IMG/VR virus record: IMGVR_UViG_3300011334_000247
Span: 1-56,239 of that record
Source of the DNA: a virus
Lineage: Duplodnaviria > Caudoviricetes
Length of the DNA stretch: 56,239 nt
Strand: one strand, 5' to 3'
Shown: positions 3,883-42,453 of the stretch, in pieces
Layout: each line of letters begins with the position of its first letter
Numbering within the stretch: the stretch's first letter is position 1
Program-made: the position numbers and the translations under genes
The notes under the pieces: generated by a model
What the model saw: the letters and a program-made list of their open reading frames with translations, nothing else
Databases searched by the model: none
Told to the model about the DNA's origin: nothing

Positions 3883-4077
3883 ATGGAAACTACAGAAACA
3901 AAACTTGCCGTGCATGAGGCCGTTTGCGCTGAACGCTACCGAAACATTGAAGATGCAATGGACCGTGGCAAGACTCGCATGCGCACCATTGAGATTCAGC
4001 TCTACATCGTGATTGCTGCCGTACTCTTTGGTCCAGGCGTGGCCGCTGAGTTCGTAAAGAAAATCCTGGGGCTGTAA
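3883..4077 (+). CDS. Small membrane protein (XhlA/holin-like)
   Basis: HEAVCAERY coiled coil followed by a C-terminal TM segment; start of lysis region. Confidence 0.6.
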   Translation: METTETKLAVHEAVCAERYRNIEDAMDRGKTRMRTIEIQLYIVIAAVLFGPGVAAEFVKKILGL

Positions 4078-16763: not shown

Positions 16764-19700
16764 ATGGCCAATTGCACGTATCGGTTCACCGACGCGAACG
16801 GCAAAGAGCGAGTCATCGAAGGCCAAGCCGCATTTAAAGCGTACCTGGCCAGCGGTGGCCTGGAGCACTTGTTGCCCGGCACTGCCATCGCGCCTGCGCT
16901 CAGTAAGCGCCAAACAGAAACGCCTGCGTTTAAGAAGTGGTTTGGTGATAGCAAAGTCGTTGACGCTAACGGCGATCCGTTGGTCATGTATCGCGGCCAA
17001 CGAAAGGTAGCAAAACCCGATCGTTTTGTTATGACTCAAGGCCGGGCGTTGCCATCATTTGCTTCTGACCCAGATGTGGCAAACGTCTACGCCTTACAAC
17101 TTGATACTCTGAGTTATGGCAAGGGTTCAAACGTCATGCCGGTTTTTCTAAGCATGCAAAATCCGTTGGACATACGTTCAGCGGGCGAAGAGATTGCGCT
17201 AGATGAGTTGATGGAAAAATTGAATTGGGATTTTTCAATTGAGAATGGATTGAAAAATGAAAAACCTGTTATCGGCTACGGCGATCTTGCCGATGCTTTA
17301 GAAGATTTGGATGAATTGATTTATTCAACAAATGCTGAATTCAAAATTGATGCCGCAAATGCTAAAGGGTATCGGATTAAAAGTTTTGAAAAACTTGCCG
17401 ATGCCATAACCGAGTGGGGTGAGGACGGGGATATTGATTCCATAGAACTTGCTTTGACGGACGTTACTTTCGATACCTATCTTTTGGGTGATTCAGAGGG
17501 CCTAATTCGTTTGATTGAAAAATCTGGATACGATGGCATCATTCACAAAGACGTGTTTGATGTTGGGGCGGCTTATTACCCCGGCGATAAAACAAAATTA
17601 GAAGAGGGCATTGGCGGCGGTCCCGTAATAGATACCTATCGCCCGCTGGAACAGACTCAAATCAAATCAGCTATCGGTAATCGCGGCACGTTTGACGTTA
17701 CCAATCCCGACATTCGATTCAGCCAGCGCGTGCCCGAGCTGGAGCCTGAAGACGTACTCAAGCCAAGCACGATTGCAGCCGCTGAGGCAGCCATCAAGCG
17801 TTACAAAAAAGCCGAGGCACCCGATACCCTTACCGCCAAACAACGGGCCGATGGTGAGGCTCTGCTCAAGCCCCTGTTCGATGGAGCCACACGCAACAAA
17901 GCAGACTTCGACAAGACCCTGGACCAGATTGCCGAAGGCTTGGGTGGCTACGCCAAGAAGCCGGGCATCAAGGGTTTGAACCGGGCCGTCACCAAGCTGA
18001 TCACCGAGAACGGGAACGACCCAACCACGATGAAGGATTTGTTGCGCGGCACGATCGTGGTCAATACCTTCCAGGAAGCCCAGGAAGCGATCAATGAGAT
18101 CGGCAAGGCGTACACCTTCGATCGGATTAAAAACCGCTTGGCTGTCGATCTGACAAGCCCTGACGGTACTGTGCTCACAGGTGTTCCCTTGTCAACCGGG
18201 TACCAAGACATCCTGACAAACGTGACCCTGGAAGATGGCACGGTTGCAGAGATTCAGATCAGCACGCCCGAGATGTTGGCTGCCAAGCATTTGGGCCATG
18301 AGGTTTATGCGTTTGAGCGAGAGATGGGTAAGAGCCCGGTCAAGTCAAAGATGGTTGATTTGCAAAAGCAAATCTATGCCGAAGGCTACGACGCTTATTT
18401 GGCACGTGAAGCGAAGGCTTTGAAGACTCGTTCAAATTCAGCCTTGCCAACCGGGTCTGCCTTCTCGCGTACATCCGAAGGGTTGCGCGGCTCAGGTGCT
18501 GGCAACCAGGCGGTGGCAGAGTCCCAGTTGGGGGCCACTGTCACAGGCACTTCGTTCCAGTCAAAGAACATGGTGCCTGGTGGTAAGGATTTGAAGTCGA
18601 AGTCCATGTCACCAAGTATACCTGAAAGCATTGGTATCAACGTAAATCAAGACGGAAATAATAAATACGCCGACAAAATCGTTGACGGAAAAAAGACACT
18701 GGAGACCAGGGCGTCCGATTCGTTGCGCCCATACGTCGGCAAACGGGTGGCCATCGTCCGCACTGGCGAAGGCCCGGCCAAAGCAATTGGCGCAGTGACG
18801 ATCGGTGAACCTATCAAAGTCACCACACAAAAACAGTTTGATAAATACCGCGATCAAAGCCTGGTGCCCAAAGACTCCAAGTTCGACATCGCTCCAGGTG
18901 GCGTGAAGTATTTGTATCCTTTGGAAAACCCTGTGCGCTATGAGACTGAGCGCGACGTTGGCCAAGGCATCGTGGCTCGTAAGGTCATCGTGCCGGTAAC
19001 CCGGGCTGCGCAAAAGAACGCAGCAGCCAGTCGCGTGGACAACGTATCCGCCGATCGATTCAAACGAACCGAACAACTCCAGCAAGCCGTCAGTGATTTG
19101 CAAGATGGCAAGATCACACGCACCGAGTACAACCGCATGGTCGACCAAGTGCGCCCGGTCTATCCGTACAAGGACCTGCCCAAGCTGACGACCGCAGCCG
19201 AGGCACGCTATGCCCTGGCCAATGGCCGTGGCCAAAGTCCAGAGAAGGCAGCCAAATACAGCTTGCCATCCAAGACTCTGAAGGCCGGAGATTGGGCACA
19301 GCTTCGCCTGGACATCCCGTCTTACCAAGAGCACGACGCGTGGGTGGTCAGCGTGCATACGCCCAAGTCCACCAACCGCGAAGTGCAGGCTGCATACGAC
19401 GCTGGCCCGGTGATTGGCTATGAGTCGGTCGGCGCTTTGACTGACGCCACCTTTGGCATGAACCAGAAGGCCGCAGCCAAGATTGCCACAGGCACAGCCA
19501 AGGGCACGATTGCCACGGTGCTGGGCAAGTGGAAGCCAATCAGCAATGCCGCTGCCACGGTCCGCGCAAAGGCCGCGATGAAAGACCCGGCTTGGGTACA
19601 GGTTGGCATGGACCCATTCCGCCACAGCTACTTCTACAACCGCGACACCATGCAGCCGATCGTTCGTGCTGATGAGGTAATTCAGATTGGTCCCTTGGTC

Positions 19701-22361
19701 TTGGCCAAGAACCCAGGCTACAGCGAGGACGTCGACATCACTGGTGCCCCTTTCGCGTTTACCAAGCGTGAAGAGCTTGTCCAGATCGCGGACGACGCTG
19801 CACGCCAGGCTGTGTTCCTTCAGCAGAAGGCCAAAGAGGCTGGCTATAAAACAGTCGATGATTTTGTTGACAACGACTACAACAAGTTTGTCGAAGTAGC
19901 GAAGCAGTGGCGCGAAGAGAACCCAGCCGAGATGATGTTCTCTCGCAAGCCAGTTGGCCGTGAGACTGAGGGCTGGATATTCAGCCGCGATGAGCTTGGT
20001 CGCTTCCGCTTCGGGGCTGGTGCAAAGGCTTACCGATACGCGGCAGACGTGGCCAACATCGTTCTCGACAAGATCAACTTGAAGCCAGTCAGCCCCGAGC
20101 TGTCACGCGCTTTGCGCAAGATGAAGGTCGAAGTCGAGAAGGCTCAGAACCTCACAGTCGATGTGGCCAAGAATCTCAAAGACTTGCCCAAGCAAGAACG
20201 CGAGATGATCAGCGATGTGATTGAAGGCGAACTCAAGAAGGGGGCCATGCCCCCTCAGCGCGTGCTCGACCTGGCTGCATCCATGCAATCGATCATGTCT
20301 GAACAGACAGCAGAGCTGGTGCGCCTGGGCATGCTGTCACCCCAGGCCGCTGGCCGTTGGGATGGCAAGTACCTGCCACGGTTCTACGAACAAAAGCTCG
20401 GCGACGAAACCAAGGCTTGGGCAAAGGCAGTCAAGGGTTTACTTGGCCGCAAGAAAACCATGCAAGGCATTCGAGGCAGCAGCTTGAAAGCAAGGGGCAT
20501 GTTCCAGAACGTGCCAGTCAATGAGCTTGACGACTGGACCAACGAAGGTTGGCAAGTTCGTGACGACAACTTCGACCCAGCAGTCGACGACACCATTACC
20601 GTGTGGCGTGACTACACCCGCGATGAGCGCGACGACATGGGCGAGATTCGCGATGCAATGTTCCGCTTCGTCATGGGATACAACAAGAGCCAGCGCGACA
20701 TTGCACTTGGACGCTTGTACGAAAACTTGGCCAGCAGCTACGGCAGCAAGCGCGAACAACCTGGATACGTACAAGTACCTGCAACTAAGGTGGAAGACAC
20801 CATGGTCCCCATGTACGGCAAACTGTCTGGCATGTGGGTACCCAAAGAAGTGCTTGACCAGTTATCTGCGTTTGACCAGTCAATGCAAAACGACTTGACC
20901 AAGATGTACCTCAAGGGTTTGTCGATGTGGAAGGAAGGCAAGACCGTTCTCAATCCAGTCGCTCACGCAAACAACGTACTGTCGAACTTGACAATGGCTC
21001 ACTTTGCTGGCGTGTCTTATTGGGATACACACAAATACGTTGGCGCAATTGCTGACCTGGTCCGAGGTAAGGACATGGTCCAAGAGGCAAGCGACGCTGG
21101 CTTGTTTGGCGGCACGTTCAACCGCGCTGAGCTGTTGAAGGTATTGCCTGAAGAACTCAAGGCCATGGCACAGATGACCGAGTCAGCAGTTGGTCGCAAC
21201 GTCGACAGACTGTGGAACGCTTTGTCTTTGTTCTTGCGCAAACCCATGGGTGTTGCATACGATGCTGAAGATCAGTTCTTCAGATACCTGATCTACCGCG
21301 ACGCACGCAACCGTGGTTTGGATGTGGATGATTCAGTCGACTACGCACAGAAGTACATCTTCACGTATGACGATTTGCCAAAGGCTGCACGAATCATTCG
21401 AGACATGCCAGTTGGTTTGCCGTTCTTTAGCTACACATTCAAAGCCATACCAGCTTTGGCCAACACAGCACTCGAGCATCCGTTCAGATACGCTGCGCCA
21501 GCCGTTGCTTTGTACACAGCAAACGCTCTCATGTACGCAATGGCTGCAAGCCTGGGCGGCGGTGACGATGAAGACTGGTGGACCGTGATTCGTCGTTATA
21601 TGACTGACGAAGAGTTCCGCAACAAAACCAAAGAGATGGAAAAGCAAGAGCGCCAGTTCTTGCCAGAGTGGATGAAGGGCGCAAGCCTGTCATTGGGCAC
21701 AGAGAAAACCATTCGCTTAGGCATGGACGATCTGACCAACTTGCCTGTGTTCTTAGACGTGAGTCGCATCTTCCCAGGTGGCGACTTGTTTGACGCACAT
21801 AACAACGCCGGTGGTGTTCCGCTGCTTGCACCGTTGACACCGAACAATCCAATCCTGACCACGGCTGCGGCGATGCTGTTCAACAAGGACACGTTCCGAA
21901 ACAAGGACATCGTTCTCAAGACAGACACCGATGCCGAGGCTGCACAGAAACGATTGGCTTGGACCTGGAAGCAAGTCTCACCTGCGATCGCTGTGGGCAA
22001 CACTCACTTCGAGCGTGCAATGAACGTGATCGCCAACAGCACTGGCCAACCTGTCGACGTGGGCCTGGCCGAGTACACCGGCATCGGTGCCGACGGCTTG
22101 CCCATCCAGGGTAAATATGCAGCGATGCAAACCGTGGGTATTAAGGCGCGACCAATTGACCTGGATACATCAGAGAAGATTCAAGCGTCGCAAACCAAGG
22201 CGATGATCAGAGACTTGGATACTCAGATACGCAAGCTCAAGCGTTTGGAAAGCAAGGGCGCGATCACTCCCGAATCGTCGGAACGTGAACGTGAGAAACT
22301 GAAGCAGAAGAAACAGTTTTTGAAAGAGGGCTTGACGGTTGAGGGTGAAGAGAAAGACTGA
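16764..22361 (+). CDS. Giant polyvalent ejection protein 2 (ART-like, RelA/SpoT-like nucleotidyltransferase, ASCH and other domains)
   Basis: 1865 aa; FKKWFGDSKVVDANGDPLVMYRG...GYDGII...QIKSAIGNRGTFD (~16920-17720); KGLNRAVTK...KDLLRGTIVV...GYQDI...AEIQI...GHEVY (~17900-18400); YADKIVDGKKTLETR ASCH (~18630-18990). Confidence 0.7.
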   Translation: MANCTYRFTDANGKERVIEGQAAFKAYLASGGLEHLLPGTAIAPALSKRQTETPAFKKWFGDSKVVDANGDPLVMYRGQRKVAKPDRFVMTQGRALPSFASDPDVANVYALQLDTLSYGKGSNVMPVFLSMQNPLDIRSAGEEIALDELMEKLNWDFSIENGLKNEKPVIGYGDLADALEDLDELIYSTNAEFKIDAANAKGYRIKSFEKLADAITEWGEDGDIDSIELALTDVTFDTYLLGDSEGLIRLIEKSGYDGIIHKDVFDVGAAYYPGDKTKLEEGIGGGPVIDTYRPLEQTQIKSAIGNRGTFDVTNPDIRFSQRVPELEPEDVLKPSTIAAAEAAIKRYKKAEAPDTLTAKQRADGEALLKPLFDGATRNKADFDKTLDQIAEGLGGYAKKPGIKGLNRAVTKLITENGNDPTTMKDLLRGTIVVNTFQEAQEAINEIGKAYTFDRIKNRLAVDLTSPDGTVLTGVPLSTGYQDILTNVTLEDGTVAEIQISTPEMLAAKHLGHEVYAFEREMGKSPVKSKMVDLQKQIYAEGYDAYLAREAKALKTRSNSALPTGSAFSRTSEGLRGSGAGNQAVAESQLGATVTGTSFQSKNMVPGGKDLKSKSMSPSIPESIGINVNQDGNNKYADKIVDGKKTLETRASDSLRPYVGKRVAIVRTGEGPAKAIGAVTIGEPIKVTTQKQFDKYRDQSLVPKDSKFDIAPGGVKYLYPLENPVRYETERDVGQGIVARKVIVPVTRAAQKNAAASRVDNVSADRFKRTEQLQQAVSDLQDGKITRTEYNRMVDQVRPVYPYKDLPKLTTAAEARYALANGRGQSPEKAAKYSLPSKTLKAGDWAQLRLDIPSYQEHDAWVVSVHTPKSTNREVQAAYDAGPVIGYESVGALTDATFGMNQKAAAKIATGTAKGTIATVLGKWKPISNAAATVRAKAAMKDPAWVQVGMDPFRHSYFYNRDTMQPIVRADEVIQIGPLVLAKNPGYSEDVDITGAPFAFTKREELVQIADDAARQAVFLQQKAKEAGYKTVDDFVDNDYNKFVEVAKQWREENPAEMMFSRKPVGRETEGWIFSRDELGRFRFGAGAKAYRYAADVANIVLDKINLKPVSPELSRALRKMKVEVEKAQNLTVDVAKNLKDLPKQEREMISDVIEGELKKGAMPPQRVLDLAASMQSIMSEQTAELVRLGMLSPQAAGRWDGKYLPRFYEQKLGDETKAWAKAVKGLLGRKKTMQGIRGSSLKARGMFQNVPVNELDDWTNEGWQVRDDNFDPAVDDTITVWRDYTRDERDDMGEIRDAMFRFVMGYNKSQRDIALGRLYENLASSYGSKREQPGYVQVPATKVEDTMVPMYGKLSGMWVPKEVLDQLSAFDQSMQNDLTKMYLKGLSMWKEGKTVLNPVAHANNVLSNLTMAHFAGVSYWDTHKYVGAIADLVRGKDMVQEASDAGLFGGTFNRAELLKVLPEELKAMAQMTESAVGRNVDRLWNALSLFLRKPMGVAYDAEDQFFRYLIYRDARNRGLDVDDSVDYAQKYIFTYDDLPKAARIIRDMPVGLPFFSYTFKAIPALANTALEHPFRYAAPAVALYTANALMYAMAASLGGGDDEDWWTVIRRYMTDEEFRNKTKEMEKQERQFLPEWMKGASLSLGTEKTIRLGMDDLTNLPVFLDVSRIFPGGDLFDAHNNAGGVPLLAPLTPNNPILTTAAAMLFNKDTFRNKDIVLKTDTDAEAAQKRLAWTWKQVSPAIAVGNTHFERAMNVIANSTGQPVDVGLAEYTGIGADGLPIQGKYAAMQTVGIKARPIDLDTSEKIQASQTKAMIRDLDTQIRKLKRLESKGAITPESSEREREKLKQKKQFLKEGLTVEGEEKD
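18395..18607 (-). CDS. Candidate antisense-embedded 70-aa protein (putative antitoxin/immunity)
   Basis: MDFDFKSLPPGTMFFDWNEVPVTVAPNWDSATAWL...; TATACT (18620-18615) 7 nt before ATG; sense frame is Ser/Gly/Thr-rich filler over this interval. Confidence 0.55.
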   Translation of the reverse strand: MDFDFKSLPPGTMFFDWNEVPVTVAPNWDSATAWLPAPEPRNPSDVREKADPVGKAEFERVFKAFASRAK

Positions 22362-36215: not shown

Positions 36216-36457
36216 GTCGTCACCTCCGGGCATCTTTCAAACAAGGCGACCAGCTTGGGGTCATCGATCTGGGTCCAGCCGTCTGGCCGATACCAAACCC
36301 CGTCCAGCTCGTGTGCGACCTGGCGACCGTAGTCGATTGGCCATCGAGAGGACTCGAGGATGCCCTCGCGAGGCATGTGTTGTGGTTGCACCGAATACAC
36401 GGCACGGTTGCCACTGGGCAACGTGACGAGCATGTTGGTGTTCGAGAGATTAGGCAT
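36212..36457 (-). CDS. Hypothetical protein
   Basis: 81-aa ORF, TAATG coupling. Confidence 0.6.
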   Translation of the reverse strand: MPNLSNTNMLVTLPSGNRAVYSVQPQHMPREGILESSRWPIDYGRQVAHELDGVWYRPDGWTQIDDPKLVALFERCPEVTT

Positions 36458-36987
36458 TAGAGCTCCTTCATTTTGGTTACGGTTTCAGTTAAAGCGGATG
36501 CCATGGGCGCACCCCTGGCAGCGATGATGCTGGCCAATTCGGTGTAGTACCACAAGACGTCTTCCTTGGGTGCCTTGAATTTTGCAAACACAGTTGGACC
36601 GTCGGAGACGATCGCCCTGGCGTTGTGCAATTTGTCAGACCCGGCAATCAGAAGAGCGTCGTTGCTTGCCTTGGCTAAGTGGGCCAGGTACTCGATTCTT
36701 TTTTCTTTCCAAGTGCCTTTGCCCAAGTGGCTGACGGCCATCACCAGGTCAGCGACATAGGGACCGAATTCTTCTCTGATCGGGATGATGTATTCCCGGC
36801 CAGCGTCTTCGACCACGTCGTGGAGAACTGCTGCAATGGCAACATCTTCACTGCCACCGTACTCCATGGCCATGGCCGAGACAGCGAGCGGGTGAGATAT
36901 GTAGGGCACGTTCGTGCCGGTTCTGAATACGCCAGCGTGAGCGGCAGTGGCCATAGCCACCGCCCTGGCATAGCGGGTTCTGTTCAT
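36457..36987 (-). CDS. HD-domain hydrolase, Mesh1/small alarmone hydrolase-like
   Basis: AH.G..R....PYISHPLAV...AAVLHDVVED...DKLHN pattern of SpoT/Mesh1 hydrolases. Confidence 0.85.
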   Translation of the reverse strand: MNRTRYARAVAMATAAHAGVFRTGTNVPYISHPLAVSAMAMEYGGSEDVAIAAVLHDVVEDAGREYIIPIREEFGPYVADLVMAVSHLGKGTWKEKRIEYLAHLAKASNDALLIAGSDKLHNARAIVSDGPTVFAKFKAPKEDVLWYYTELASIIAARGAPMASALTETVTKMKEL

Positions 36988-37073
36988 AACGGTCTCCAGA
37001 TAAAAATGTCCAACAACAAAGCGACCATGGCCGCGATGTATACGAGAGTGAGTGCAATGGCTTCGCGGTTCAT
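36984..37073 (-). CDS. Small membrane peptide, 29 aa
   Basis: Read manually: MNREAIALTLVYIAAMVALLLDIFIWRPL; 4-nt overlaps. Confidence 0.55.
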   Translation of the reverse strand: MNREAIALTLVYIAAMVALLLDIFIWRPL

Positions 37074-37405
37074 TCGATCCCCTGTTCTTTGGCAGCAGCC
37101 AAAATAATTTCGTCCATCTTGGCTTCGATTGCATCAGCGGTTGACTTGCTGATCATGTCGTAGCGTCCGTAGTTTTGTTTGATTTCCCTGGGCACGCCAG
37201 GGATGCGAAACACGGTGCTGAATTCACGGGCCAAATTGCAAAGCCCGTTGTTGTACAGGTCGTAGTAGCAGTTCGATGCCTTACGAAACTTTTCAAAATG
37301 CTTGTTGGAAGTCTTTGCGTTTGGCACAGAGCCAAAGAATGGCACCCGGTCTCTCAACGCATCGGCCTTGGCCTGGTATCGGCCCTTGCTTTCCCAATAT
37401 GTCAT
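37070..37405 (-). CDS. Hypothetical protein
   Basis: MTYWESKGRYQ...YYDLYNNGLCN. Confidence 0.7.
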   Translation of the reverse strand: MTYWESKGRYQAKADALRDRVPFFGSVPNAKTSNKHFEKFRKASNCYYDLYNNGLCNLAREFSTVFRIPGVPREIKQNYGRYDMISKSTADAIEAKMDEIILAAAKEQGIE

Positions 37406-37670: not shown

Positions 37671-37685
37671 GTGTTCTCCTGATCC

Positions 37686-37760
37686 CTGGCAACCGGCCAG
37701 ATCGGTGTGCAAGCGCACTGGTCAGGGCACCCGGGTGGATGCCCTGCACCGCTGTGCTTA
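37686..37760 (-). ncRNA. Structured cis RNA element, class II copy A
   Basis: Long bulged hairpin + ACCGA + CTGGC-CGGTT-GCCAG hairpin just before RBS; covaries with 39621-39694. Confidence 0.5.
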
Positions 37761-38714
37761 CGCGGTCAACAAGTCCAAAGCGCGGGACTTGAGGTCAGCG
37801 CCTGCACCCCACTGGGATGCAACGAAGCGGTTTTCATCGCTACGAGCGCGGACGTGGTGGTCAGCGTATTCAGTGACAGCGTTGAGGAAGCCCCAACGTG
37901 TACCGAAGACACCGTCCATGGTGGAGCCCATGCCGCCGCCGTTGAAAAGGTCGAGGACCTTCTTGAAACCGGCAGTCTCACGGACCTTGTCACCGCCACC
38001 GAAGAGCGCGACGGCCATGTCGCCAGCCTGCTCTTCGTGCATGTCGACGTTGGCCAGGCTTGTCACTGTGTGACGGAAGGCATCCCATGCAGCAGTGTTC
38101 AGGCCCATGAATTCTTTGATTGATTCAGGGTTGAACACTGAGCGGTGAGTTACCTTGAAAGACGCGGGAGCGTCGGTCATGGCCATCTGCAAAGTGTTCT
38201 TGCAGACGGTGCGAACAGTGGTACGACGCACCTCAGTGGACAACGATCCGTCAGCCGAGGTGCTGATCAGGATGTAGCCGCCGATCTTGTCGGCCAATGA
38301 AGCGGGAGAGGCTTCGCCGATCTTGGCCGTAGCCCAGAAACGCTTGCCACCGTAGATCGTGCCAGCAGCTGACAACTCCAGGCCACCGGCCTTGGCGATG
38401 TCGCGGAAGAACTCGATCACTTCACCAGGCTGCACGACCTGGTACTTGCGGGACACGACACCCAGGGGTGCTTTCGTGTCGGAGCGGAACAGAACGTGCT
38501 GATCCGGCAATTCCACCTGGCCACCGTTGTATTCGGTGTTGAAGCGGACGATGCCACGCTTGATCTTCCAGTCCATGCCAGCGGCCTCGCGCCAAGCATC
38601 GAGGCTAGTGCCGTCGGCGAGTGCTTGGCCAAGGCCGTGCCAGGGTGTTCCGTCCGAAGCCAAGTAGGCAAATTCGACACGGCCATTAGCGCGGGTTGTG
38701 AGTTCGTGAGACAT
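37758..38714 (-). CDS. DUF932 family protein
   Basis: PWHGLG, AGMDW, LGVVS..Y.VVQP, STSADGS, VRTVCKNTL, GTRWG.LNAVTEYADH. Confidence 0.9.
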   Translation of the reverse strand: MSHELTTRANGRVEFAYLASDGTPWHGLGQALADGTSLDAWREAAGMDWKIKRGIVRFNTEYNGGQVELPDQHVLFRSDTKAPLGVVSRKYQVVQPGEVIEFFRDIAKAGGLELSAAGTIYGGKRFWATAKIGEASPASLADKIGGYILISTSADGSLSTEVRRTTVRTVCKNTLQMAMTDAPASFKVTHRSVFNPESIKEFMGLNTAAWDAFRHTVTSLANVDMHEEQAGDMAVALFGGGDKVRETAGFKKVLDLFNGGGMGSTMDGVFGTRWGFLNAVTEYADHHVRARSDENRFVASQWGAGADLKSRALDLLTA

Positions 38715-38736
38715 GATTCATTTCCTTTACAAAAAA

Positions 38737-38792
38737 ACCAAGCAGTTGCGGTCGCCTGGATACACCGCCAATACCCGGCACGCCGGGCATTG
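38737..38792 (-). ncRNA. Structured cis RNA element, class I copy 1
   Basis: 33-nt core ACCAAGCAGTYRCGGTCGCCTGGATACACCGCC (+ strand) plus hairpin with GCGTGC loop. Confidence 0.6.
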
Positions 38793-38798
38793 CAAGGG

Positions 38799-39101
38799 CT
38801 ATGCGCCCTCCATTTCAAATAACCAGTCACCACCCATGGCAGCTTCGACGAAGCTGATGCTGCCCTTGGTGCCTTCTTTCACGTCGTCCCTTGAAGGGAT
38901 CACGTTGCCGTAGTAGTCACGGGCAGCAGCTGGTCCGAGCAAGCAACGGCCAGAGCTGATGGCGTCCATCATCACCCGGCCATAGCTGCCTTGCAGCGAC
39001 CAGGCACCGGAGTTGATGGCGCGTTGCACGGCCAGGTAAAAGTCGAGTTCGGTGACTTCGTCATCCGACTCGATCGCGGCGATGTCGTTAAGTGTCAGCA
39101 T
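38799..39101 (-). CDS. Hypothetical protein
   Basis: AINSGAWSLQGSYGR motif; 100 aa. Confidence 0.7.
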   Translation of the reverse strand: MLTLNDIAAIESDDEVTELDFYLAVQRAINSGAWSLQGSYGRVMMDAISSGRCLLGPAAARDYYGNVIPSRDDVKEGTKGSISFVEAAMGGDWLFEMEGA

Positions 39102-39313
39102 TCCAATTCCCCTTTCATGGCCCGGAAGATCAGGGCCTTACCTTTATTGAGAGATTGCCGAGCGCCTTCGATGTCACCGAAGGCCATCTGTTCTTGGGCG
39201 TCGGACATCAAGCCCGCGACGACCATGTTGACGCCAGCAACCTGGTACGTGATCGAGTCGACCACGCTGGCGATGAATTCATCGATGTCGCAACCGTACA
39301 TTTGGTCAACCAT
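39095..39313 (-). CDS. Hypothetical protein
   Basis: GGAG RBS; MYGCDID...LMSDAQE...RQSLNKGK. Confidence 0.65.
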   Translation of the reverse strand: MVDQMYGCDIDEFIASVVDSITYQVAGVNMVVAGLMSDAQEQMAFGDIEGARQSLNKGKALIFRAMKGELEC

Positions 39314-39314
39314 G

Positions 39315-39602
39315 TCAGTTCTCCAAAGGTTCGGTTTGAGCGGCCAGCAAGTTGTAGCTGACGGTGGTGTACTTGGTGACCAAGTCGGCGGGAGCTTCGA
39401 GCTCCTGGGCAACCTTGGCCCAAGCAACGCTTTTCTTTTCAGGCGTCAGCTTGACGGTGGTGACGTACATGCTGCCTCTGTAAGTGCCAGCACCCAGCAA
39501 CTTGATTTTGTTTTTCAAGTCTTCGGCCTGTTCTTGCAAGGCGTCGATCTGGTCTTCCAACAGGCCGAGCTCGTCGACCATCTTCAAAGCGGTGGTATCC
39601 AT
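39315..39602 (-). CDS. Hypothetical protein
   Basis: GGAG RBS; VDELGLL..QI..L coiled coil. Confidence 0.7.
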   Translation of the reverse strand: MDTTALKMVDELGLLEDQIDALQEQAEDLKNKIKLLGAGTYRGSMYVTTVKLTPEKKSVAWAKVAQELEAPADLVTKYTTVSYNLLAAQTEPLEN

Positions 39603-39620
39603 AAGAATCTCCAAAGAAAC

Positions 39621-39694
39621 ACCAGCGACCGGCTGGTTCGGAGTGTTGATCACACTGCACTGCACCCTGTCACGGTGCAGCACGCTGGGATCAA
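39621..39694 (-). ncRNA. Structured cis RNA element, class II copy B
   Basis: TTGATC...GATCAA-closed hairpin + TCCGA + CCAGC-CGGTC-GCTGG hairpin before RBS. Confidence 0.5.
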
Positions 39695-39870
39695 ACGGCC
39701 ATCTGTTCAGCGAAGATGTAATTTGCAGCAGCCTTTGCGTCCTTGAGCGAGTCGACGTTCCAGCCTGTGTAGCTGTCGCCGTCCTTGTCAAAGAACAATT
39801 CATAAACCTGAGCGGCTTGGCTGAACGCAGCCCAGATTTCGACGTTGCCTTTTGATGCGATGAATTTCAT
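39691..39870 (-). CDS. Hypothetical protein, 59 aa
   Basis: Read manually: MKFIASKGNVEIWAAFSQAAQVYELFFDKDGDSYTGWNVDSLKDAKAAANYIFAEQMAV; AAGGAG RBS. Confidence 0.7.
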   Translation of the reverse strand: MKFIASKGNVEIWAAFSQAAQVYELFFDKDGDSYTGWNVDSLKDAKAAANYIFAEQMAV

Positions 39871-39885
39871 GTGATCTCCTTTAAG

Positions 39886-40065
39886 TTAAGCGGGGGCAAA
39901 CAGTTTCCGACCTTCCCTCATAAACACGCGGAAGGCAACAGCCTCCCGGTTGTCGAGTTCGTCGGCAGCAAGCATCTCTTCCATCTCGATGAGCATTTCC
40001 AGGAAGCCCAGGCCGTAAGCCTCGCGCTTGTTGTCGATGATGTTGATTGCGGTTGTGATGTCCAT
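39886..40065 (-). CDS. Hypothetical protein
   Basis: GGAG RBS before MDITTAINII. Confidence 0.65.
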   Translation of the reverse strand: MDITTAINIIDNKREAYGLGFLEMLIEMEEMLAADELDNREAVAFRVFMREGRKLFAPA

Positions 40066-40067
40066 GT

Positions 40068-40280
40068 TTATCTCCAAACTGAGTAAGGTTCGCCACCGCT
40101 GAGCGCGATGTCGTAGGGTGAAAAGATCGGGGTGAATTTGCGGGCGCTGTTCATAATGTTCACAGCGTTGTCGTAGAAGTCTTCGCGCAAGGTGTCAAAA
40201 CGCTTGCCCCCTACTTCTACCAGCGGCATTTCCAGATCGATCAGTTGTACGCTGAGCGGTATGTCGCGGTACTTTTTCAT
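40068..40280 (-). CDS. Hypothetical protein
   Basis: GGAGG RBS, 70 aa. Confidence 0.6.
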   Translation of the reverse strand: MKKYRDIPLSVQLIDLEMPLVEVGGKRFDTLREDFYDNAVNIMNSARKFTPIFSPYDIALSGGEPYSVWR

Positions 40281-40471
40281 ACGACCTCCGGTGTGTAGGC
40301 GCTGACGTACTCGATTTCGTAACCGAGGGCCTTGATCACGGCCAGGTCGCCGGTGCTGAAAGTCTTTGTGCCGACCAGGGCAGCAAGCAACTCAGCAGTG
40401 CGGTTGCCTGGTGCTGGGTAAACCTTGGGAAGGCCGTACACCGATTTGATTGTCAAAACGACAGTTGGCAT
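40277..40471 (-). CDS. Hypothetical protein
   Basis: IKSVYG..KVYP...L.GTKT...IKALGY motif; AGGAG RBS. Confidence 0.7.
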   Translation of the reverse strand: MPTVVLTIKSVYGLPKVYPAPGNRTAELLAALVGTKTFSTGDLAVIKALGYEIEYVSAYTPEVV

Positions 40472-40488
40472 GTCTATCTCCTGAAAGT

Positions 40489-40545
40489 ACCAAGCAGTTA
40501 CGGTCGCCTGGATACACCGCCAATGCCGAGCACGCCGGGCATTGG
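40489..40545 (-). ncRNA. Structured cis RNA element, class I copy 2
   Basis: Same 33-nt core plus hairpin. Confidence 0.6.
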
Positions 40546-40565
40546 AAGGGCCGAAGCCCTGGGGG

Positions 40566-40661
40566 TTAGGAGTTCAACCACTCCTCAAAGGTTTTGATTG
40601 GCCAGCCAAGGTCCTTGGCGCAGGCCACGTAAATTTGATAACGCGATTGCAGGCTTTCCAT
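40566..40661 (-). CDS. Small protein, 31 aa
   Basis: Read manually: MESLQSRYQIYVACAKDLGWPIKTFEEWLNS; AAGGAG RBS. Confidence 0.65.
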   Translation of the reverse strand: MESLQSRYQIYVACAKDLGWPIKTFEEWLNS

Positions 40662-40676
40662 ATTTACTCCTTGAAG

Positions 40677-40889
40677 TTAAGTTCCGTAAGTTCCCCAGGC
40701 AGGCATCTCCCACAGCCATTCGGTGGCTGAGTAGGGCAGCGACTCCCGTGTGCGTTCGTTGTTGGCGTATGCAACCAGTGCAGCCCGGTCCGACCGAAGC
40801 CGTTCGAGCGTGGCAGTTACATGCGCATCAGGCCGATACGACTCAAACATCTTGATGTTGAAGTCGATCTTGGCAAGTGCTTTTTCCAT
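40677..40889 (-). CDS. Hypothetical protein (first early gene)
   Basis: GGAG RBS before MEKALAK. Confidence 0.6.
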   Translation of the reverse strand: MEKALAKIDFNIKMFESYRPDAHVTATLERLRSDRAALVAYANNERTRESLPYSATEWLWEMPAWGTYGT

Positions 40890-40904
40890 GCTGATCTCCA
40901 AAGT

Positions 40905-40961
40905 ACCAAGCAGTCACGGTCGCCTGGATACACCGCCGGAAGGCAGCACGCTGCCCTCTGG
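40905..40961 (-). ncRNA. Structured cis RNA element, class I copy 3
   Basis: Same core; hairpin stem sequence replaced but pairing and loop kept. Confidence 0.6.
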
Positions 40962-41105
40962 TCCATCCTTCGCACTCGTCAGTCTGGGGGACTGGTTCTT
41001 AGCGGTCTGGCCTTTAGGTTCCCTGGTCGGTACTGCGTAATCGGCTGGTTCCCTTTTTGTATCCCCCTGGTCCTTCGGGGCTCAGTCGTTTCTGACTAGG
41101 ACTCC

Positions 41106-41133
41106 AATGTAGCACACTGACAGTGACTGTCAA
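41106..41133 (-). promoter_or_regulatory. Early sigma70 promoter with overlapping palindromic operator
   Basis: TTGACA-16-TACATT with TG extension; palindrome TGACAG-TGA-CTGTCA at 41118-41132. Confidence 0.65.
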
Positions 41134-41230
41134 GTAAATATTAAGTTTCGGCAAAAATACAACAAAAATCTTTTTGCCGGCGTTGTTTTTACGCAACAAA
41201 TATTTTGATTTTTTGATGGTTTTCAGCCAC

Positions 41231-41280
41231 TTGACCCGGTTTGCACGTCGGTTTACACTCTTCGCGGGACCGTGCGTCTC
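41231..41280 (+). promoter_or_regulatory. Late promoter 2 (TTGACC-17-TACACT) with GGGACC leader hairpin
   Basis: -35 41231-36, -10 41254-59, GGGACCGTGCGTCTC 41266-80. Confidence 0.7.
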
Positions 41281-41294
41281 AAAAAACTGTTAAC

Positions 41295-41319
41295 AAAGCC
41301 GCCTCTCAGGCGGCTTTTT
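41295..41319 (+). terminator. Promoter-proximal intrinsic terminator
   Basis: AAAGCCGCCT-CTC-AGGCGGCTTTTT. Confidence 0.75.
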
Positions 41320-41332
41320 CATTGGGAAAATC

Positions 41333-41572
41333 ATGCAACAAATCACAATCACCGTCGGCGACGACGGCAATATCACAGTCGAAACAAGCGAAGGTGGGGA
41401 GCCGTACCAATGTCAAAGCACCGATGAGTGCTTGAAGTACGTCGGCATGATCCTCAAGGAAGAATCGGGCGAAAGCCCACAAGAGCAATCCACTGAAGGG
41501 CCGGAGAACTACGGCAAGATGTGGGAGCAAGAGGCCCAAAAGCGTCAACCCCAACCTGGCCTCATGGCCTAA
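41333..41572 (+). CDS. Hypothetical acidic protein
   Basis: 79-aa ORF, first late gene. Confidence 0.65.
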   Translation: MQQITITVGDDGNITVETSEGGEPYQCQSTDECLKYVGMILKEESGESPQEQSTEGPENYGKMWEQEAQKRQPQPGLMA

Positions 41573-41586
41573 TCAAGGAGCTAACT

Positions 41587-41820
41587 ATGCAAAGCTATTC
41601 AAACCCAGAATCCCGCAACACCATGCGTGCAGCAGGCAACCCGATGAAAACCGGCGCAGCTATCGGCGGCGGTGGCAATCAAACACAAGGCGCTGGCCAA
41701 ATCCCTGGCAAAGTGTCCGTGCCCATGCCTGGCACCGATAAGACCCAATCCGCATACAAAGGCGGCACGGCTAAAGCCCCCATGGGTTTTAACAACGGCC
41801 TGATCGCTGGAAAAATCTAA
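41587..41820 (+). CDS. Hypothetical Gly/Lys-rich protein
   Basis: AAGGAG RBS before MQSYSNP. Confidence 0.65.
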   Translation: MQSYSNPESRNTMRAAGNPMKTGAAIGGGGNQTQGAGQIPGKVSVPMPGTDKTQSAYKGGTAKAPMGFNNGLIAGKI

Positions 41821-41978
41821 TGCCTAGCAAGTCCGCTGCCCAGGCCAGGATGATGGCCGCAGCCGCTCACAACCCCGCCTTCGCTAAGAAGGTGGGTGTT
41901 CCTGTGTCTGTGGCTGAGGACTACAACAAGGCTGACAAGGGCACGGGCATCATTCGCAAAGCGATGAAGAAAAAATGA
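41820..41978 (+). CDS. Small basic protein, 52 aa
   Basis: Read manually: MPSKSAAQARMMAAAAHNPAFAKKVGVPVSVAEDYNKADKGTGIIRKAMKKK. Confidence 0.75.
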   Translation: MPSKSAAQARMMAAAAHNPAFAKKVGVPVSVAEDYNKADKGTGIIRKAMKKK

Positions 41979-42145
41979 AGCCCGGTCTCTACGCCAACAT
42001 TCACGCCAAGCAAGAGCGAATCGCTGCTGGCAGCGGTGAGCACATGCGCAAACCAGGCACCAAAGGTGCGCCGACCGCAGAGGCTTTCCGCGAATCAGCG
42101 AAGACTGCAAAGCCTGGCATCATTCGCAAGGCGATGAAGAAATGA
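41975..42145 (+). CDS. Small basic protein, 56 aa
   Basis: Read manually: MKPGLYANIHAKQERIAAGSGEHMRKPGTKGAPTAEAFRESAKTAKPGIIRKAMKK. Confidence 0.75.
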   Translation: MKPGLYANIHAKQERIAAGSGEHMRKPGTKGAPTAEAFRESAKTAKPGIIRKAMKK

Positions 42146-42453
42146 AAACACCAGCGTGGCAACGATCCGAGGGGAAGAACCCCGAGGGTGGACTCAATGC
42201 GAAGGGTCGCGCAAGCGCCAAGGCTGAGGGCATGAACCTCAAAGCTCCGGTGAAGTCCGGCGACAATCCACGTCGCGCGAGCTTCCTGGCCAGGATGGGC
42301 AACATGCCTGGTCCTGAACGCAAGAACGGCGAGCCGACCCGGCTGTTGTTGAGCTTGCAGGCTTGGGGCGCATCAAGCAAAGCAGACGCGAAGGCCAAGG
42401 CCAAAGCGATCAGCGCACGCAACGGCATCATTCGCAAAGCGATGAAGGATTGA
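42142..42453 (+). CDS. Small basic protein (DUF6321-like)
   Basis: PAWQRSEGKNPEGGLNAKGRAS...RRASFLARM. Confidence 0.75.
   Translation: MKTPAWQRSEGKNPEGGLNAKGRASAKAEGMNLKAPVKSGDNPRRASFLARMGNMPGPERKNGEPTRLLLSLQAWGASSKADAKAKAKAISARNGIIRKAMKD

Follow-up and report, generated by a model that had tools for sequence, protein, structure and literature searches.

A hairpin-pseudoknot RNA element repeated in front of early-gene ribosome binding sites in a group of uncultured phages

Early operons of phages carry many small genes of unknown function, and the control of their expression is poorly understood. The locus described here raises the question of why one short sequence should stand, almost unchanged, directly in front of several ribosome binding sites (RBSs) of such an operon. 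The stretch analysed (the window) is the complete IMG/VR virus record IMGVR_UViG_3300011334_000247 (56,239 bp, complete according to CheckV), and all coordinates refer to it. On the plus strand, a 33-nt core begins at positions 38737, 40489 and 40905, with 31 of its 33 positions identical, and lies within direct repeats of 68 nt at 38732, 40484 and 40900 (n = 3). A 21-nt piece of the core is found three times in the window, and 100 dinucleotide-preserving shuffles never produced it; this bears out the three-copy repeat described in an earlier note on this DNA. The three copies are read on the minus strand, which is the mRNA strand, and each consists of a hairpin followed by an H-type pseudoknot. 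This class I element is a genuine RNA motif family without an Rfam match: Rfam 15 reports no family at its gathering threshold over the whole window, and a permissive search (E ≤ 10) of 38600–41200 yields three weak, unrelated matches, none of which overlaps a copy. The note, for its part, could match the element to no familiar ribozyme. The fold, the strand, the association with start sites and the modularity of the element are well supported by the comparison of sequences.

Each copy has the same order of parts, namely hairpin H1, CGGU, GUAU, CCAGGC(G), ACCG, a 4-nt loop, (U)GCUUGG, a short linker, a Shine-Dalgarno (SD) sequence and an ATG. H1 is an 11-bp stem with a CGUG loop, which is closed by an invariant G-C pair. 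The pseudoknot 3′ of H1 is made up of two helices, S1 (CGGU/ACCG, 4 bp) and S2 (CCAGGC/GCUUGG, 6 bp). Across copies, loop L1 is 3–4 nt long, loop L3 is 4–5 nt long and the junction measures 1 nt. By stereochemical rules these lengths should be adequate for both helices to exist at once. Both helices are kept in evolution, as expected of an H-type pseudoknot. The earlier description, a hairpin with a constant loop and a stem that changes but stays paired, holds in outline, and the hairpin is better drawn with 11 bp and a CGUG loop. Each pseudoknot helix had been given one pair too many (five in S1 and seven in S2): the proposed fifth S1 pair would need a G that is taken up in closing H1, and opposite this G relatives have A, C or U; the last proposed S2 pair is unpaired in 59 of 86 distinct copies.

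Copy 3, the leader copy, occupies 40906–40961 (83.4 bits with the covariance model R1 introduced below), and its helices covary in relatives. Its H1 pairs 40961–40951 with 40946–40936 around the CGUG loop at 40950–40947, S1 pairs 40935–40932 with 40920–40917, and S2 pairs 40927–40922 with 40911–40906; L1 is GUAU (40931–40928) and L3 is UGAC (40916–40913). Downstream (40887–40905) are the linker UACUUU, the SD GGAG (40899–40896) and the ATG (40889–40887) of the first early gene (70 amino acids, 40677–40889). Copy 2 occupies 40490–40545 (86.1 bits), with H1 at 40545–40535/40530–40520, S1 formed by 40519–40516 and 40504–40501, and S2 formed by 40511–40506 and 40495–40490. It is followed by a linker, the SD AGGAG (40482–40478) and the ATG of a 64-residue gene at 40471. 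Copy 1 occupies 38738–38793 (87.4 bits), with H1 at 38793–38783/38778–38768, S1 formed by 38767–38764 and 38752–38749, and S2 formed by 38759–38754 and 38743–38738; a U-rich linker, the SD AAGGA (38727–38723) and the ATG at 38714 of a DUF932 gene (37758–38714) follow. The distance from the end of the pseudoknot to the ATG is 16 nt (ATG 40889), 18 nt (40471) and 23 nt (38714), short as had been proposed, with a range slightly different from the 15–22 nt given. The extra AGGGC/GCCCT hairpin attributed to copies 1 and 2 is real. At copy 1 it reads AGGGC-GCAUA-GCCCU (38795–38809) and contains the TAG stop of the upstream 100-residue gene (38799–39101). At copy 2 it reads AGGGC-UUCG-GCCCU (H0, 40547–40560) and lies between the stop of a 31-residue upstream frame (40566) and H1.

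Is the element confined to this genome? An exact 18-mer of the core is present in 20 viral contigs, with 1–5 occurrences per contig and 50 copies in total, and a search with the DUF932 protein gave 80 related loci (63–100% identity). R1, built from 42 distinct copies with the S1 pairing left out, was run over 88 sources (714 kb) at E ≤ 0.001 and produced 103 matches in 61 sources, 86 of them distinct, among them diverged copies without H1. All sources with R1 matches are related uncultured phage contigs; weak R1 matches in L096 and L097 were set aside as chance, since they lie inside a coding frame. Twelve of 17 whole records carry the element, in 1–4 copies each and always inside a stretch of about 2 kb in the early operon, and the more distant whole records have one copy each. 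The DUF932 search of bacterial genome contigs gave just nine loci, and neither R1 nor the element model R2 found a copy in these or in their parent genomes. A degenerate pattern of the element had no match in a sample of 401 genomes from the order of one of these DUF932-bearing genomes. Megablast of 38000–42000 against cultured-phage records returned no match, and the nearest cultured relatives of the large terminase, Xylella phage Xfas53 and Rhizobium phages, show less than 61% identity to it.

Copies within one genome resemble each other more than they resemble copies in other genomes. In the relatives L005 (3305–3706), L013, L014 and L020, an extra gene (MRYKKQDMR...) has a standard class I copy on one side and a diverged copy, without H1, on the other. 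This gene is missing from the window, the copy 2 of which combines the 5′ part of one bracketing copy with the 3′ flank of the other. Copy 2 thus looks like a recombinant of the two, as recombination between repeats would give. This lends some support to the suggestion that the element anchors recombination, as a consequence of the repeat and not as a function in itself.

The structure is supported by the pattern of substitutions in relatives, and the covariation check that the note had called for gives compensatory changes in H1, S1 and S2 alike. Helix counts were taken on the 86 distinct copies. Paired cells make up 94.6% of the total, as against 81.8 ± 0.5% in shuffles, and pairing drops to 17–48% in controls with slid partners; the covariation score is 0.399, as against 0.171 in shuffles, and none of 500 shuffles reaches the observed value of either measure. 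In H1, compensatory changes are found at 10 of 11 pairs. S1 is 99.7% paired and has compensatory changes at two of its four pairs (U-A in 45 copies and C-G in 40; C-G in 82 and U-A in 3); its variants are CGGU/ACCG (45 copies), CGGC/GCCG (40) and UGGC/GCCA (3), with one U-G intermediate and one mismatch. S2 has compensatory changes at two of seven pairs and one-sided changes at one, its first pair being C-G in 56 copies, U-A in 16 and G-C in 4, and its third A-U in 80 and G-C in 6. All four combinations of S1 and S2 variants occur, so at least some of the changes are independent or have been recombined. Since S1 was absent from the search model, its pairing is no artefact of fitting; H1 and S2 were part of that model, and their counts are therefore somewhat biased.

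Two further properties of the alignment bear on the nature of the molecule. G-U pairs are frequent (at the pair 57–73 in 46 of 86 copies and at 13–40 in 37 of 86), and because these would be A-C mismatches on the other strand, they indicate that the structured strand is that of the mRNA and that the structure is one of RNA rather than DNA. The unpaired nucleotides G50, A52 and A68 are invariant, and the CGUG loop is nearly so (its positions are conserved in 78–80 of 86 copies), while the stem of H1 is free to vary. Only the linker before the SD is clearly single-stranded, and the sequence of this linker is not conserved. Folded on their own, copies 1–3 are not clearly better than shuffles (z = −1.21, −0.71 and −1.97), and the leader fold is likewise not better. 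As the folding energies are unremarkable, support for the structure rests on covariation in relatives.

What do the copies have in common in their surroundings? Each of 87 distinct contexts (87/87) has an ATG 12–30 nt past the pseudoknot that opens a frame of at least 30 codons or one that runs off the locus, in keeping with the placement just upstream of RBSs on the transcribed strand proposed earlier. The SD lies 5–15 nt past the pseudoknot, mostly 6–7 nt, and both SD and spacer vary by gene. The upstream side is more diverse: by pattern matching, 34 of 91 contexts have the conserved leader and 26 of 91 a UUCG hairpin after the previous stop (strict pattern), and the remainder have variants of the UUCG hairpin or other upstream sequences. 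Copies are located only in the early operon, at the leader or in long gaps; in the window, the genes that separate the copies overlap or almost touch. A given gene can do without the element, as the MLTLND gene has a copy in L023, whereas in the window this gene is coupled to its neighbour. The fixed proximity of the SD in all 87 contexts speaks for a function in translation or in the fate of the mRNA, and counts against antitermination.

One-orientation repeats at the starts of a subset of genes are also known from Cluster K mycobacteriophages, where the start-associated sequence (SAS) is described as a 13-bp motif that includes the SD and is present in 11–19 copies genome-wide; its function is given as unknown, a role in translation initiation has been suggested, and half of the SAS copies have an upstream inverted repeat (the ESAS; PMC3203893). 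The SAS motif as given in that description has no match in the window at up to two mismatches. Unlike in SAS, the SD of the class I element varies, the conserved part is the upstream pseudoknot, and the copies are confined to the early operon.

The operon itself runs leftward and is made up of small genes of unknown families. It extends from a promoter-like site (TTGACA-16-TACATT with an extended TG, 41133–41106 on the minus strand) through the first ATG at 40889 to at least the DUF932 gene and an HD-domain gene. The site has 10 of 12 matches to a sigma-70-like promoter and is conserved in an alignment of 18 leaders (A3), and the transcription start is predicted from it. The site is overlapped by a palindrome, GACAGTCACTGTC, a possible operator that relatives have conserved. 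With a rightward promoter-like sequence, TTGACC-17-TACACT (41231–41259), the region 41106–41259 is a divergent promoter region. Short contigs from two RNA libraries (X10 and X12) match the operon in places, 40897–41067 among them; they give neither ends nor strand nor level, and DNA carry-over is possible.

Two observations go beyond the earlier note: copy 3 is part of a larger conserved leader, and hammerhead ribozymes occupy the same slot in relatives. The leader, about 200 nt from promoter to first ATG, is conserved throughout A3 and has compensatory changes in at least three further helices of the A3 consensus fold, plus invariant blocks. Its 5′ domain (40962–41100, minus strand) is a conserved structured RNA in itself, in which invariant GACCGCU and CGAGUGCGAAGG flank a covarying hairpin; at the 3′ end, copy 3 is joined on. 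Copy 3 is the 3′ domain of the leader, and in the other copies this domain has been duplicated in front of other genes. Which gene comes first after the leader varies from phage to phage. A search of 40870–41115 with Rfam returned only IRES_APC (13.6 bits, E = 5.7), and the extended leader motif is likewise without an Rfam match. A scan of viral contigs with a leader-core pattern (16 fixed bases, 18 gap lengths), which yields many chance matches, as expected, gave 75 new loci, 18 of them with a class I copy and nine more with the extended leader motif. These nine are otherwise different phage contigs without class I (L113, L117, L130, L131, L142, L147, L152, L164 and L180), in which the motif lies 40–130 nt past a promoter-like site and, in two, before tRNA arrays. 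As the leader core is found without class I, the 5′ domain can be separated from the class I element, each being a module, and this domain may act on transcription. The arrangement of GACCGCU and CGAGUGCGAAG around the covarying hairpin of the 5′ domain is kink-turn-like.

The slot before the DUF932 gene is filled in three ways, by class I in the closer relatives, by a second structured element (class II) in others, and by a hammerhead in a group with 73–79% identity. Type I hammerhead cores with covarying stems I–III precede the DUF932 ATG by 65–95 nt in 27 of 225 loci (L055–L074 near 3900–3960, e.g. L060:3899–3957, and L119, L135, L136, L139, L148, L155, L186, L203 and L217), and are followed by a hairpin with a CGGUU loop and then the SD. 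Rfam scores them below threshold (RAGATH-1-hammerhead, 23.7 bits; Hammerhead_1, 18.5 bits), and the hammerhead alignments of PMC3088659 might already include some from these phages. Phages with a hammerhead in this slot keep a class I copy at the leader. The hammerhead core (CUGANGA ... GAAA with three stems) is absent from the class I copies of the window, where Rfam also reports none, and the pattern matches three times elsewhere in the window, with 3.4 matches expected. Class II has two copies in the window (39606–39690 and 37671–37757, minus strand), before genes starting at 39605 and 37670, and precedes DUF932 in L035, L038, L042, L043, L048, L049 and L053. It consists of a conserved 5′ part with AGCGUGC or AGCGGUGC, a covarying internal hairpin, a hairpin with a CGGUY loop, a linker, GGAG and the ATG. 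The pentamer CGUGC is shared by the H1 loop of class I, the 5′ part of class II and the hammerhead modules, in differing structural settings; this was noticed post hoc and may be due to chance. An uncatalogued RNA fold is thus placed directly before RBSs across a group of uncultured phages, and is exchanged with hammerheads and with a second structured element.

Which function would explain such an arrangement? Among the roles listed in the note, two readings appear live, translational enhancement and processing or stabilisation of the mRNA. We tentatively favour the former, in the form of a portable RNA module by which the 5′ edge of an early cistron is marked for translation on its own, and which serves, probably, as a docking platform for the ribosome and its protein S1. 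The module would fold on its own, in cis, within the early mRNA, with the variable stem of H1 and its fixed CGUG loop stacked beside the compact pseudoknot, followed by 5–15 nt of mostly U/A-rich single strand and the SD. It would form the 5′ boundary of the translation initiation region, at which the 30S subunit, via protein S1 and the platform, would be offered a structured docking or standby site next to an open linker and SD. Cistrons that lack translational coupling, because they are the first after the leader or lie past a long intergenic gap, could in this way be translated independently. The module might additionally stop decay arriving from upstream. It is portable, copies of it having been set before different genes.

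The docking reading is favoured because of the analogy to the standby pseudoknot of tisB and the affinity of protein S1 for pseudoknots; we infer both the docking and any effect on expression from this likeness. In the +42 mRNA of Escherichia coli tisB, a 5′ pseudoknot and a nearby single-stranded region are reported to form a standby site for S1 and the 30S subunit, S1 binds H-type pseudoknots with nanomolar affinity, and compensatory mutants show that the pseudoknot is needed for binding of both 30S and S1 (PMC7708055). The class I element resembles this site in having an H-type pseudoknot beside an unstructured stretch upstream of the RBS, and the combination of pseudoknot and adjacent single strand (a 5–15 nt linker) is found in all contexts examined. 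The tisB site, as described there, is a single copy in a toxin mRNA, with about 100 nt between it and the sequestered RBS downstream. The class I pseudoknot differs in that 5–15 nt separate it from an SD that is apparently open, in its recurrence in front of unrelated phage genes and in its extra hairpin. The two share no sequence similarity, and the likeness on the class I side is one of predicted structure. Translation of repZ in IncI plasmids is activated by a pseudoknot, but no antisense RNA or leader peptide is known for class I. The synthetic insulator RiboJ combines a hammerhead with a hairpin before the RBS, and differs from class I in that the window has no ribozyme core. Should the element be a docking or insulating module, it would be a natural counterpart of such insulators and a new case of pseudoknot-assisted initiation in bacteria.

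Several results weigh against this reading. The copies share ancestry, so that the counts of changes are neither independent events nor probabilities, and two of the five covariation measures are not significant (pairs changed on both sides, 14 vs 11.7 in shuffles, reached by 29 of 500; further pair types, 34 vs 31.7, reached by 93 of 500). In S1, S2 and the loops, sequence is conserved far beyond what pairing requires, which suits a specific partner or a catalytic core as well as it suits docking. SD accessibility in silico, from a folding model that leaves out the pseudoknot, shows no clear effect of the element: the mean unpaired probability of the SD is 0.503 in natural contexts, compared with 0.481 after shuffling of the element and 0.550 for an isolated initiation region, and natural accessibility exceeds the shuffled mean in just 50 of 86 contexts. 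Finally, the hammerhead in the same slot of relatives points to cleavage and not to docking.

This last point is the reason why mRNA processing is the main rival, a serious one that we regard as possible though not probable. The early polycistronic transcript would be cut at or beside the element by a host RNase or by the RNA itself, with the folds protecting the new ends, and the element would be the functional equivalent of the covarying hammerhead cores that precede DUF932 in its relatives. Prophage hammerheads are described as clustering around single genes or short gene blocks and have been proposed to process long phage transcripts, and one from a halovirus lies 13 nt before an early gene (PMC3088659). 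The class I pattern agrees with that of these gene-flanking ribozymes, being one of small structured RNAs repeated between operon genes, near start codons and with variable neighbours. The very stable UUCG hairpin H0, found after the upstream stop in many internal copies, is like a protector of 3′ ends, and an RNA of about 57 nt with a pseudoknot, invariant unpaired G50, A52 and A68 and an invariant loop has the size and style of small ribozymes. Class I, however, has no hammerhead or other known ribozyme core and no Rfam match, and self-cleavage is not known for it. RNase III sites lie between T7 early genes and are likewise repeated structured elements between early cistrons, but class I lacks their long duplex. 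RNase III substrates span about two helical turns; H1 has just 11 bp, and a 21-bp stack is possible only with coaxial H1, S1 and S2. The one clearly single-stranded stretch, in front of the SD, is not conserved in sequence, and phages with hammerheads also retain the leader copy of class I, so the two may not be interchangeable. A narrower version, in which class I is a new class of self-cleaving ribozyme or an RNA-only processing module that cuts upstream of each independently expressed gene, seems rather doubtful. New ribozyme classes have been found before through genes associated with twister and hammerhead ribozymes, and the same logic applies here, to a compact and highly conserved RNA found alongside known ribozymes; if the element does cleave, it would be such a class and would help to explain the clustering of ribozymes in phage operons.

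The contrast between the near-invariant CGUG loop, S1 and S2 and the freely varying stem of H1 is typical of sequence-specific recognition, and would also suit an operator for a regulator acting in trans, either a small RNA or an RNA-binding protein of phage or host, that would bind every copy and co-regulate early cistrons, for example by blocking the SD to shut them off. Several copies per operon would make a small regulon, CGUGC recurs in class II elements and after the hammerhead, and post-transcriptional control at early-gene SDs has precedents in T4, where RegB is reported to cut GGAG with the help of S1 (PMC1702504). Such an operator is nevertheless unlikely. No candidate regulator was identified (complementary RNA was not searched for), the early genes are small and of unknown family, and the first gene after the leader varies between phages.

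An action on transcription, as a put-like antiterminator RNA or as a weak intrinsic terminator or attenuator formed by S2 and a U run, is improbable. HK022 put is described as a structured nascent RNA of about 60–70 nt with two stem-loops, putL being just past the early promoter (PMC9378689), and copy 3 in its promoter-proximal leader is comparable, both being structured nascent RNAs of a phage early operon. As portrayed in that source, put has no such pseudoknot and no fixed relation to an SD. The antiterminator suggested in the note finds no support: R2, run with filters off over HK022 nun-cI-cro in a comparison of the element model with put only, gave a best score of 3 bits (E = 2) and nothing at the put regions, and the fixed SD distance is unexpected for an antiterminator. 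As for a terminator, a terminator-like scan flags S2 plus the T run of copy 1, and in 56 of 86 copies T makes up at least five of the 8 nt that follow S2. The U run is lacking, however, in 16 of 86 copies (three T or fewer), copies 2 and 3 of the window have UACUUU, the S2 loop is 8–11 nt long, and no strong terminators were seen downstream.

A feature of the DNA is very improbable, be it a site for protein binding, a promoter in hairpin form for a phage RNA polymerase or simply a patch of homology at which early-gene cassettes are shuffled, despite the position of the element at mosaic junctions (copy 2 compared with L005, L013, L014 and L020) and the greater likeness of copies within a genome, because the compensatory changes and frequent G-U pairs suit the sense strand only, the leader comes after a sigma-70-like promoter, a search of the record for a T7-type RNA polymerase domain was empty (its controls were also silent), and recombination follows from any repeat.

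The remainder of the genome encodes a large terminase, portal, major head protein, DNA polymerase, exonuclease, primase/helicase and a polyvalent protein with an ADP-ribosyltransferase (ART) domain. The latter (16764–22361, plus strand) is 1865 residues long and also contains a stretch with weak RelA/SpoT likeness. Among the products of the early operon is an HD_4 domain protein (36457–37134, minus strand) of the kind found in (p)ppGpp hydrolases. Upstream of the terminase, three consecutive small genes (41820–41978, 41975–42145 and 42142–42453) end in the same C-terminal peptide, GIIRKAMK, which is encoded by direct DNA repeats at 41941–41969, 42111–42139 and 42419–42447 (plus strand).

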